A stretch of 5,411 nt of DNA. It comes from a virus. Lineage: Duplodnaviria > Heunggongvirae > Uroviricota > Caudoviricetes. Shown one piece after another: positions 3,272-5,411 of this stretch. The notes under the pieces were generated by a model. That model was given only the letters and a program-made list of their open reading frames with translations. It had not been told where the DNA came from and searched no databases. Numbering within the stretch: position 1 is the first letter of the stretch; each line of letters starts with the position of its first letter. The position numbers and the translations under genes were made by a program. Location: IMG/VR virus record IMGVR_UViG_2671180759_000018, positions 1 to 5,411 of that record; one strand, given 5' to 3'.

Positions 3272-3784
3272 TCAGCCAAGCCCGAGCGCGGAACGGATGC
3301 GATCGGGCACAATGTCCTTGCCGTCCTTCCGGTAAATGAAGTTCAGCAGGTCAATCTCCCACAACGGGCGATCGTTAACACTCAGCTTGTAGTAGGTGTT
3401 TTTAATGGCGTAAGTGTGTGATGTGGCTTCGCCCTGTTTGGCTTCCCCCATATCAATTTCCGTCACACGTCCGCGCATTTCGACTTCATACAGGTCGCTT
3501 TCTGCATCGGTGTAATATTCACCCGCAAAACGCAGCAGCGTGCCGTCAATCGTGCCGCCATACTTAAGGAACAGCTCACGAACTGCGCCCCCCATGACAA
3601 AGCTCGCATCAAGCGCGGAGTCGTCCAGACCGAGATCAATACTTACCGCACCCATCATGCCACCACCCCGGTAGCTGTCGGTTTTGCGCGTCAGCTTAGG
3701 CAGAGTGACGGACGTCACCTTACCCACTTCGTTTTCACCATCCACAAACAGCGTAAAAAAGCGAAGATGTTTTGGCACAGCCAT
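3272..3784 (-). CDS. FII: Phage tail tube protein gpFII (170 aa)
   Basis: Motifs VTLPKLTRK..YRGGGM..DLGLDDSAL match the P2 FII tube protein as I recall it. Start ATG overlaps the FI stop by 1 nt (TGATG), and a GGGAGG SD lies inside the FI 3' end. Confidence 0.9.
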   Translation of the reverse strand: MAVPKHLRFFTLFVDGENEVGKVTSVTLPKLTRKTDSYRGGGMMGAVSIDLGLDDSALDASFVMGGAVRELFLKYGGTIDGTLLRFAGEYYTDAESDLYEVEMRGRVTEIDMGEAKQGEATSHTYAIKNTYYKLSVNDRPLWEIDLLNFIYRKDGKDIVPDRIRSALGLG

Positions 3785-4968
3785 CAGGCACCTCCCAGCA
3801 CCGCAAATGCGGGACCAAAGAATTCATCAGTAAACGTCTGGTAAAGCTCCATGTCTTCCAGTGGCGGAACGGGCGTATATTTGTAGCGAATACGCACACG
3901 CCCCTGACGTAAATCCGTGGTGCCGTTATCCACCACGTCATACCAGCACGACGCCCCAATCAGTTTCCCGGCAGTAACCAGTGAATCCAGTTTTGCCCTG
4001 ATGGCACTGATAACATCTTTCACGTTCGCAGGCGTCAGTGGACTGTCGATGGTTTCAAACTGCGCTTCCGCAATTGAATCAGCCAGCACCTGTGCGGTTC
4101 GGGTATACACCTCAAAGATGTAGGCGTTCGTTTCCGGTGTGCGGTTGCCCCAGAAGCGGAACCCGTTGCGACGAATAATGGTCGTGATTTCTTTGTTGTT
4201 GAGGCTGTTGGCATCACTGTCTTCGGCCTGCAACGACCAGAACACATGCCTCGACATCCCCAGCACATTCTTAACCGGAACGTTGGAGAGTGATTTGTGC
4301 CATCCCTGCTCATGGTCAATGTACGCACGAAGGCCGCACGCATAGGCAGGCGCGGGGAACGTTTCGTTTTTGCCACTTTTCGGGTTGTAGGCGATGAAGT
4401 CCGGCCATAAGAGCATCACCTCACGTTCGTTGAATTTCTGGCGGTAGGTAATCGCATCAGCCATCGTGTCACAGCCATGACATGAGGCATACACAAACGC
4501 GCGCAGTTTACCCGCAATCACGCACAGGGATTTTGTCACCGCCTCCGTATCCAGCTCCGGCGCGGCCAGAATACGCGGACGGTATCCGATGCTTTCATCC
4601 TGCTCTGCAACAAGCAGCGCATACATCCCCGTATAGCTGCCGTCAGATTCAGAACCACCGATAACCAGTTGATCCTGCGTCTTTCCGTCTTCTTCTTTGT
4701 GTTCAGCCACGCGAACGACGATCACCTTTGTGCTCACCTGGTCTGCAATGGCCTTAAGCGCACGATAAAGCGTCCCCGTTGTCCCGCATTTTCCCAGCAC
4801 GTCATTGACGCGGGTCAGCAGTGTGGGCTTGTTCAGCGGGAACAGCTCCGCGTCCGCATCATCCGCCGTTGCCACGATACCGATAACACTGGAATCAACA
4901 TCATTAATCGCTGTTACCAGGTCGGTACTTTCCGTAACACGGGCACCATGAAAACGAGTTTCACTCAT
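3784..4968 (-). CDS. FI: Phage contractile tail sheath protein gpFI (394 aa)
   Basis: Conserved sheath motifs shared with P2 FI (ADDADAELFPLNKP, KLRAF.Y, LLWPDF, EQGWHK.LSNV, IRRNGFRFWGNRT, YKYTPVPPLE). Length is about that of P2 FI (396 aa). Confidence 0.95.
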   Translation of the reverse strand: MSETRFHGARVTESTDLVTAINDVDSSVIGIVATADDADAELFPLNKPTLLTRVNDVLGKCGTTGTLYRALKAIADQVSTKVIVVRVAEHKEEDGKTQDQLVIGGSESDGSYTGMYALLVAEQDESIGYRPRILAAPELDTEAVTKSLCVIAGKLRAFVYASCHGCDTMADAITYRQKFNEREVMLLWPDFIAYNPKSGKNETFPAPAYACGLRAYIDHEQGWHKSLSNVPVKNVLGMSRHVFWSLQAEDSDANSLNNKEITTIIRRNGFRFWGNRTPETNAYIFEVYTRTAQVLADSIAEAQFETIDSPLTPANVKDVISAIRAKLDSLVTAGKLIGASCWYDVVDNGTTDLRQGRVRIRYKYTPVPPLEDMELYQTFTDEFFGPAFAVLGGA

Positions 4969-5125
4969 AGCTTCAGCCCCTTGTATCCGTTAAATGATTC
5001 GGCAACAATCATCACCCACCACGCGCGTAATCTCACTCCTGCGCCGTTCTCCCGCCACGGCGACAACAAAAAGCAGTAACCCCCTCCGCACGCACATGCG
5101 ACCATGCCGCACAGGGAGGGAACAG
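4969..5125. promoter_or_regulatory. Divergent intergenic region between FI and D, presumed to carry promoters for both
   Basis: 157 bp of non-coding sequence between two divergently oriented starts. A GGGAGGG SD lies 5 nt upstream of the D ATG. A weak sigma70-like pair (TTGTAT 4981..4986, 17-bp spacer, AACAAT 5004..5009) faces D. No clean TGT-N12-ACA Ogr-type box was found. Confidence 0.3.
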
Positions 5126-5411
5126 ATGACCGACACCACCATGCAATTGCTCAGTCAGGGCACAGACCCCGTGAAAATGCCGGATTTTGATATTCTCGCG
5201 GAGGGTAAAACGCTGTCAGGCGTGGCAGAGCGCCTGATGAGCCTGTCACTGACCGACAACCGGGGATTTGAAGCGGACCAGCTCACCATCACGCTGGATG
5301 ATGCGGATGGTCAGTTGCAGCTACCGCCACGGGGCGCGCGCCTGACGGTTCTCATTGGCTGGAAAGGAGAACCGCTGACAGAAAAAGGCACTTGTAGATT
5401 CAATCTGTCAA
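5126..5411 (+). CDS. D: Phage late control protein D (gpD-like), N-terminal 95 codons; continues past the window end
   Basis: Translation MTDTTMQLLSQGTDPVKMPDFDILAEGKTLSGVAERLMSLSLTDNRGFEADQLTITLDDADGQLQLPPRGARLTVLIGWKGEPL contains the LTDNRGFEADQL block characteristic of P2 gpD. Strong SD upstream; in-frame alternative ATGs at 5096 and 4994 lack a comparable SD. Confidence 0.85.
   Translation, partial: MTDTTMQLLSQGTDPVKMPDFDILAEGKTLSGVAERLMSLSLTDNRGFEADQLTITLDDADGQLQLPPRGARLTVLIGWKGEPLTEKGTCRFNLS

Follow-up and report, generated by a model that had tools for sequence, protein, structure and literature searches.

In this DNA the tail sheath gene FI and the baseplate hub gene D are divergent, an arrangement that is normal for, and inherited within, a large group of P2-related phages and that works in living phages. 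Taken together, the evidence makes it very probable that the window (the whole stretch of 5,411 nucleotides analysed here) comes from a decaying P88-type prophage (Xuanwuvirus-like, Peduoviridae) that carries the inverted tail block found throughout its clade, with an FI/D gap that is predicted to act as a bidirectional late promoter. When genome scans turn up a divergent D/FI pair, it should not be taken to indicate a decayed prophage or a faulty assembly; this layout is standard in a P2-like lineage that is very common among enterobacteria.

The window contains a P2-like tail module, recognizable by adjacent and co-directional sheath (FI) and tube (FII) genes on the minus strand, by an E/E' chaperone pair followed by the tape-measure gene T, and by a homologue of the baseplate hub protein gpD (Table 1). 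Protein comparison gave 45% identity between P2 FI and the FI of the window (E 5e-120), and RefSeq annotates a tail protein, a GpE family protein and a tape measure protein on identical DNA in two prophage relatives, L001 and L002. Matches between the window and its prophage relatives start at 2455. An Rfam scan of the whole window returned no match. An open reading frame on the plus strand at 4669-5079 was dropped as a gene, since it overlaps the start of FI and spans gap sequence that is non-coding and poorly conserved, and a 'hypothetical protein' annotated across the FI/D gap of P88 was dropped on the same grounds.

Table 1. Features of the window, in order of position; promoter elements and the activator dyad are predictions.
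Feature	Position	Strand	Basis or detail
Complete ISEc22 (IS66 family: tnpA, tnpB, tnpC) inside T	1-2454	minus	Pfam IS66 domains
E (2852-3217), E' frame and 5' part of tape-measure gene T	2455-3217	minus	T truncated at 2455
FII, tail tube gene, co-transcribed with FI	3272-3784	minus	Pfam Phage_tube, E 7.5e-47
FI, tail sheath gene	3784-4968	minus	394-aa ORF; Pfam Phage_sheath_1, Gp18_domIII_N, Phage_sheath_1C
FI/D intergenic region, read as putative bidirectional late-promoter region	4969-5125		157 bp; conserved motif geometry
Predicted pF -10 hexamer GATGAT	5008-5013	minus	-35-like GTGAGA at 5036-5031; predicted start ~5001
Predicted Ogr-type activator dyad TCT-N12-ACA (TCTCCCGCCACGGCGACA)	5048-5065		centre 5056.5
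Predicted pD extended -10 TG-c-GACCAT	5097-5105	plus	-35-like TAACCC at 5077-5082; predicted start ~5112
gpD (baseplate hub, 'late control D'), truncated to its N-terminal 89 codons	5126-5392	plus	match to P88 gpD
IS30 end interrupting D	5393-5411		comparison with relative L001

The D frame opens behind a GGGAGGG ribosome-binding site, and we set its identity by pairwise comparison with the gpD proteins of P2 and P88. Residues 1-89 are the same in it and in P88 gpD (100% identity), and the fragment shows 59% identity to P2 gpD over residues 15-85 of the latter (E 3e-26). RefSeq labels the same stretch 'phage late control D family protein, incomplete'. Full-length P88 gpD matches the Pfam model Phage_GPD (PF05954) with 64 bits; the fragment alone (89-95 aa) has no Pfam match because the region matched by the model begins past residue 90.

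The prophage is decaying, as T and D are both interrupted by insertion sequences. The element inside T is assigned from 100% identical copies that carry the ISEc22 annotation, and its termini read GTAAGCG...CGCTTAC. Rather than just continuing past the end of the window, the D frame is cut after codon 89 by IS30: in L001 the identical sequence runs on into an IS30 of 1221 bp, which carries its transposase and has a target duplication of 2 bp (CT), and P88 is uninterrupted at the matching point. Because ISEc22 splits T and IS30 splits D, the tail module of this copy cannot be functional. Neither insertion is related to the FI/D layout. On these matters the original prediction holds good: it had placed FI and a gpD homologue on opposite strands 157 bp apart, which the open reading frame coordinates bear out; it had described FI to D as co-directional in P2 and 186, in agreement with both genomes; and it had seen no insertion sequence at the junction, where the gap indeed contains none. 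It was also right to suspect decay, evident in T and D yet unrelated to gene order, and to doubt that the IS66 copy in T explains the layout.

A different outcome awaited its suggestion that an inversion or deletion within the decaying prophage had brought D next to FI. A recent rearrangement specific to this copy would fit the visible decay (ISEc22 in T, IS30 in D) and the different order of canonical P2 and 186, but we consider it extremely improbable. Of 5426 complete E. coli genomes, 1372 (about a quarter) have the identical junction when matches covering at least 80% of the query are counted, and it also occurs in intact, plaque-forming phages. Escherichia phage P88 (Xuanwuvirus P88, Peduoviridae; KP063541), which was induced and forms plaques (PMC5285337), is 98.5% identical in nucleotide sequence to window positions 2455-5393; the 157-bp FI/D gap is shared with it except for one base, and the N-terminus of its D is 100% identical. 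The complete P88 genome and that of Citrobacter phage PhiSM, a functional temperate phage (PMC6456863), have the same gene order as the window, with FI, FII, E, E', T and U read leftward and D rightward from a divergent FI/D junction; both phages are intact and infectious, whereas the copy in the window has T split by ISEc22 and D cut by IS30. Intact relatives with a divergent D-FI pair had been named in advance as the finding that would make the arrangement a lineage trait, and P88 and PhiSM are such relatives. Further points against a recent event are a layout that tracks the D phylogeny perfectly over 80 loci from many genera, the conserved regulatory architecture of the gap, and a junction free of insertion sequences and repeats.

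The same genomes dispose of a chimeric junction around 4900-5200, which had been raised as a possible misassembly. The window does resemble a short-read contig in being bounded by repeats, starting at an ISEc22 terminus and ending 19 nt into IS30; the D-FI junction, however, lies at least 400 bp from either repeat and is base-for-base identical in phages as well as in closed genomes produced by many laboratories. We regard the artefact as ruled out by the 1372 complete E. coli genomes, with a residual probability that is practically nil. In a search of complete E. coli genomes with the whole window, no single record contained the ISEc22-in-T junction together with the rest of the window.

That the tail module differs from canonical P2 was correctly proposed, but the architecture is specific neither to tailocins nor to remnants. 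One could instead imagine an architecturally distinct tailocin (R-type bacteriocin) module in place of a phage, given the same layout in Xenorhabdus, Photorhabdus and Kosakonia, three genera with known P2-like tailocins. It is nevertheless a very unlikely source of this DNA. Its closest relatives, at 98-100% identity, are complete prophages that encode head, lysis and replication functions as well as integrase, and the layout is common to infectious phages; T and D are moreover disrupted, leaving no functional tail from this copy alone. Judged from relatives that are 98.5-100% identical and carry portal, terminase, capsid and other phage modules, the prophage would not lack the head, packaging and replication genes that a tailocin would be without.

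The P88-type clade is marked by FI and D diverging from a gap of about 150 bp, and this is seen in the window itself; that U closes the block at its other end, towards the tail-fibre genes, is seen only in the near-identical relatives L001, L002 and P88. At that U end, in P88 and L001, the block is adjoined by a serine recombinase (DNA invertase) gene. An alternative would have the Cin/Gin-type invertase next to U in P88 and ETEC H10407 flip FI-U as a programmed segment, so that the divergent state is one of two. The block nonetheless has a single orientation in all 58 P88-like loci and in all phage genomes examined, phiT5282H, 3LV2017 and L002 keep that orientation while having no invertase, and the invertase is accounted for by adjacent duplicated and inverted tail-fibre and assembly genes; programmed inversion is thus highly improbable.

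The preferred reading, a fixed clade-wide layout, is borne out by its distribution. Species genomes from GTDB provided 80 gpD loci, and D is divergent in 58/58 of those with a P88-like D and canonical in 22/22 of those with a P2-like D. Outside the P88 lineage the divergent layout is present in at least four other lineages of Peduoviridae (Novemvirus, Reginaelenavirus, Reipivirus and Serratia phage KSP20), and in 55 of the 58 divergent loci D is followed by ogr in the same orientation. Since P2, 186 and phiCTX have the canonical order, the inversion of pF-FI-FII-E-E'-T-U is taken to be a derived trait fixed in one clade, an ancestral-state call made from these three genomes and the 22 canonical loci. 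The block from the late promoter pF through FI, FII, E/E' and T to U is turned round relative to P2 throughout the clade, so that FI is transcribed away from D while D and ogr keep their original direction. Divergent FI/D as such is ordinary; searches of the literature for papers that describe the inverted tail block explicitly found nothing relevant.

Motif geometry conserved among relatives gives the 157-bp gap the appearance of a bidirectional late promoter with mirror symmetry. FI/D gaps measure 145-161 bp in nearly all of the 58 related loci, and the four outliers (32, 32, 91 and 129 bp) were treated as artefacts of automatic calling of the D start. Conservation within the gap is confined to a central dyad and to symmetric -35-like and -10-like blocks on either side of it. 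The P2 activator consensus is TGT-N12-ACA (PMC3931495; also the P2 record). A strict match to it is absent from the gap of the window, where the candidate site is a TCT variant with one mismatch; we accept it as the dyad because the same variant stands at the same position in relatives and in their P/O gap. The pattern T[G/C]T-N12-ACA occurs at a fixed position of the gap in 54/58 loci, as against about 8% of shuffled gaps, and the remaining four loci have variants of the dyad. The P/O gap of the same phages holds the same extended motif, the choice of TGT or TCT matches between the FI/D and P/O gaps in 4/4 phages, and the extended motif is found in just these two places in the P88 genome. Another dyad seen by eye, CGCCGT...ACGGCG at about 5042-5062, was dropped because it is not conserved in other genera.

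The two predicted -10 hexamers are mirror images in position, each ending 48.5 nt from the dyad centre. In an anchored stack of 58 unique sequences (from 54/58 loci, the window and four phages), the pF hexamer is conserved at A2 (55/58), A5 (56/58) and T6 (55/58), with a 17-bp spacer, and the pD element at the G of its TG (51/58) and at A2 (55/58), A5 (45/58) and T6 (52/58) of its hexamer. These sequences share ancestry, so that the counts overstate their independence, although they have diverged freely in the N12 spacer and in the flanks. The -10 hexamers of the window agree with TATAAT in no more than 3 to 4 of the 6 positions, and a consensus scan of 4900-5200 found no promoter, terminator, strong sigma-70 site or consensus -35.

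From this geometry we infer activator binding, both start sites and the dependence of D on the dyad. A single Ogr-type dyad would sit about 55 bp upstream of two weak, mirror-image sigma-70 promoters, of which the leftward one (start near 5001) would read FI through U and the rightward one (start near 5112) would read D and probably continue into ogr; D could also have an additional promoter that is independent of the activator. On a wider scale, we lean slightly towards a reading in which the late regulon of P88-type phages condensed the four unidirectional or paired promoters of P2 into two bidirectional regions, pP/pO and pF/pD, each with one shared Ogr-type dyad, and in which the old inversion of pF through U was tolerated or favoured because a dyad that works both ways would have given D a promoter at once. 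We read two regions because S and V are contiguous in the P88-type clade, leaving no room for an intergenic pV, and because the P88 genome has just two copies of the extended dyad. We found no paper describing such a reorganisation in this clade. An old 5.3-kb inversion appears to have made a one-way late promoter two-way around a single activator site, a possible case of an operon inversion made survivable by the dyad symmetry of such a site. Even if true, the bidirectional model would leave the understanding of P2-type late control unchanged.

The genes involved are homologous to those of the F (J) operon of P2 and 186 (pF-FI-FII-E-E'-T-U-D-ogr), and ogr lies downstream of D in both arrangements. 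A dyad of the TGT-N12-ACA type is upstream of FI at a similar distance, 88.5 bp from the ATG for the predicted one in the window and about 82 bp in P2. In P2 and 186, however, D is the last gene of the F operon, co-directional with and directly downstream of U, whereas in the window D is on the opposite strand from the inverted block of pF to U and must be transcribed separately.

The same divergent design, with 151-154 bp gaps and the same dyad and -10 blocks, recurs in Novemvirus phiT5282H, Reginaelenavirus 3LV2017, Reipivirus ST16-OXA48phi5.4 and Serratia phage KSP20, which infect different hosts and share only about 64-70% nucleotide identity with the window in FI and D; some of the four have a TGT instead of a TCT half-site. 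Within P2 itself the parallel is pP/pO, where, as predicted for the FI/D gap, a single central dyad that serves as one shared activator binding site lies between two divergent late genes. The intergenic lengths are 173 bp for P2 pP/pO, 154 bp for P88 P/O and 157 bp for FI/D of the window, and the distance from start to dyad centre is annotated as 55.5 bp on both sides in P2 pP/pO and predicted as about 55.5 bp in the window. The P2 site is annotated from experiment and flanks packaging and head genes, whereas the FI/D site is predicted purely from conservation and flanks tail genes.

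In the window, the tail sheath gene FI and the baseplate hub gene D are divergent and 157 bp apart, exactly as originally predicted. The sheath protein is 45% identical to P2 FI. The D frame was correctly recognized as a gpD homologue: its 89 residues in the window are 100% identical to P88 gpD, its N-terminus matches P2 gpD residues 15-85 at 59% identity (E 3e-26), and full-length P88 gpD matches Pfam Phage_GPD, the baseplate hub family. The frame does not simply run off the end of the sequence, however, but is cut by an IS30 element. The element in T is ISEc22; copies bearing that annotation are 100% identical to it, and its ends read GTAAGCG...CGCTTAC. 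An Rfam search of the window gave no match.

Features of the window, in positional order. Residue counts for the -10-like hexamers are from the dyad-anchored stack of 58 sequences.
Feature	Position	Strand	Details
ISEc22 (IS66 family), complete	1-2454		tnpA, tnpB and tnpC; inserted in T
T, tape-measure gene, 5' part	broken at 2455	minus	IS66-family element at the break
E, then E' frame	2852-3217 (E)	minus	
FII, tail tube gene	3272-3784	minus	Pfam Phage_tube
FI, tail sheath gene	3784-4968	minus	394 aa; three Pfam sheath domains
FI/D gap, start codon to start codon	4969-5125		157 bp
FI-side -10-like hexamer	5013 to 5008	minus	GATGAT; A2 55/58, A5 56/58, T6 55/58
FI-side weak -35-like block	5036 to 5031		17-bp spacing
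Central dyad	5048-5065		centre 5056.5
D-side weak -35-like block	5077-5082		17-bp spacing
D-side -10-like hexamer	5100-5105	plus	GACCAT, preceded by TG; G 51/58, A2 55/58, T6 52/58
D, gpD open frame	from 5126	plus	preceded by GGGAGGG ribosome-binding site
IS30 end	5393-5411		last 19 nt of window; interrupts D after codon 89

The original prediction read the junction as an inversion or deletion within a decaying prophage, or as a tail-module architecture unlike that of canonical P2, such as a tailocin-like or remnant cluster, and named misassembly as something to rule out. We searched 5426 complete E. coli genomes by megablast with window positions 2400-5411, and a single collinear match to at least 80% of the query, hence across the D/FI junction, was found in 1372. 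In ETEC H10407 and the closest relative, strain 7_33_46A (100% identity across 2455-5411), an otherwise complete P2-like prophage contains the region and has the order ...V W J I H G / cargo / U<- T<- E'<- E<- FII<- FI<- / D-> ... ogr->. The order is exactly the same in Escherichia phage P88 (Xuanwuvirus; complete genome, 98.5% identity over the query), and Citrobacter phage PhiSM has the same D/FI junction. P88 was induced with mitomycin C, and this plaque-forming phage has also been engineered (PMC5285337); PhiSM is a temperate phage that is released spontaneously and forms plaques and lysogens (PMC6456863). The junction shared by these phages and the 1372 genomes excludes misassembly and refutes a recent rearrangement local to this prophage, as intact close relatives carry the same divergent arrangement. 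Nor does a tailocin cluster fit, since the nearest relatives are full prophages and the layout also occurs in infectious phages.

A more sensitive search using the junction itself as query found divergent FI and D in Serratia phage KSP20, Enterobacter phage phiT5282H (Novemvirus), and Klebsiella phages 3LV2017 (Reginaelenavirus) and ST16-OXA48phi5.4 (Reipivirus). We then classified 80 loci, retrieved with a gpD alignment from one genome per GTDB species, by tblastn of FI, U, D and Ogr. The layout follows D type, which again speaks against a recent event: where D shares at least 61% identity with P88 gpD (58 loci), FI is always directly upstream of D on the opposite strand and U lies another 5.4 kb or so upstream on FI's strand, while at an identity of at most 53% (22 loci) the order is always the canonical FI...U-D on one strand. 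The divergent loci come from Salmonella, Citrobacter, Klebsiella, Enterobacter, Kosakonia, Serratia, Pectobacterium, Brenneria, Erwinia, Pantoea, Edwardsiella, Providencia, Morganella, Xenorhabdus, Photorhabdus, Yersinia, Hafnia and others. P2 and 186 have the canonical order, as predicted, and so does Pseudomonas phage phiCTX; parsimony makes inversion of the block the derived state, one that has become fixed in a single large enterobacterial clade. In 55 of the 58 loci with divergent FI and D, the late activator gene ogr still lies downstream of D and on its strand, mostly at a distance of 40-110 bp, and its retention there makes the inverted segment exactly pF to U. Although a Cin/Gin-type invertase gene adjoins U in P88 and H10407, FI-U is unlikely to be a programmed invertible segment: every locus examined has one orientation, relatives without the invertase share it, and the adjoining tail-fibre genes, duplicated and inverted, account for the invertase. 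A P88-type FI/D locus, its D 99% identical to P88 gpD, was also found on a 226-kb contig labelled 'Vagococcus sp. WN89Y' (NZ_JBQPOM010000071.1); Vagococcus is a Firmicute, and contamination with enterobacterial DNA, or an assembly under the wrong label, is the most likely explanation.

The P2 F operon ends with D; taken out of that position by the inversion, D needs a promoter of its own. With wrongly annotated starts put right, the FI/D gap measures 151-157 bp in five phages of the divergent type, and it is 145-161 bp in nearly all 58 loci. P2's four late promoters have a TGT-N12-ACA dyad in common (PMC3931495). T[G/C]T-N12-ACA occurs at a fixed place, 80.5-88.5 bp from the FI ATG, in 54 of the 58 gaps, and anywhere in about 8% of shuffled gaps. 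The other four carry CCT-N12-ACA or, in Providencia, perfectly symmetric TCT-N12-AGA, the latter suggesting that the TCT half-site may be a genuine recognition variant co-evolving with the local Ogr homologue. In two Providencia loci the perfectly symmetric dyad, about 70-95 nt upstream of FI, reads GGTTCTC-N10-GAGAACC.

With the dyad as anchor, we stacked the window, four phages and 54 of the 58 loci, 58 unique sequences in all. Variation is free in the N12 spacer and across most of the gap, but two -10-like hexamers are conserved, each ending exactly 48.5 nt from the dyad centre, with predicted starts at about 5001 (minus) and 5112 (plus), 55.5 bp either side of it. An extended motif, GTTCT-N12-ACAACAAAA, also occurs in the P88 P/O gap, and in the whole P88 genome only there and in the FI/D gap; P/O and FI/D gaps agree in their TGT or TCT variant in 4 of 4 phages. 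A scan of the gap for consensus sigma-70 promoters found none, as is expected of activator-dependent promoters. Most likely the gap is a bidirectional promoter in which the single central dyad would drive two mirror-image promoters, pF leftward to FI and pD rightward to D.

Several deposited annotations run genes too far into this gap. The sheath start is placed 15 codons too early in phiT5282H (L006 5397-6623) and 42 codons too early in ST16-OXA48phi5.4 (L008 6059-7357), the KSP20 gpD-like ORF (L005 3783-5213) has about 92 codons too many, overlapping FI, and a P88 'hypothetical protein' (L003 33155-33286) is called across the promoter region.

In P88-type phages (L003 19576-20789, and equivalents in L009, L010 and L011) S and V overlap or abut, leaving no room for an intergenic pV as in P2 or 186. 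The head, lysis, baseplate and tail-fibre genes may form one long operon from pO, and we suggest that the clade's late genes could run from two bidirectional units. Each end of the inverted block seems to be a hot spot for cargo. In 7_33_46A, a His-Xaa-Ser radical-SAM system, hxsDBCA, lies between D and ogr (L002 17163-20560) and a serine acetyltransferase between the tail-fibre assembly gene and U (L002 8210-8782); at the latter site, P88 and H10407 have the invertase and alternative fibre genes instead.

The prophage in the window is degraded, T being hit by ISEc22 and D by IS30, so that decay was rightly predicted, as was the lack of any IS at the D/FI junction; neither element explains the layout. 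P88 D is uninterrupted at the equivalent position. IS30 is found at the same D site and in the same orientation in 7_33_46A, H10407 (with a 2-bp CT target duplication; L001 22945-24165) and several further strains with prophages of 98.5-100% identity, which may reflect inheritance with a prophage sub-lineage or an IS30 hot spot. The ISEc22-T junction was absent from all 5426 complete E. coli genomes searched. The window start coincides exactly with an ISEc22 terminus, T being split at 2454/2455, and ISEc22 reaches at least 20 copies in some human E. coli isolates.

Divergent D/FI is a known, common and inherited gene order rather than a novelty or anomaly, visible in the deposited genomes of P88, KSP20 and several ICTV genera. 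The sole mildly new element is the putative single-dyad pF/pD promoter, with two-unit late control in the clade; our literature search found no paper discussing either. The model adds only incrementally to the P2 pP/pO paradigm. In the P2 record, the opposed pP and pO starts have a single activator site in common, annotated between them at 55.5 bp from each, and by its sequence the FI/D gap appears to have the same design.
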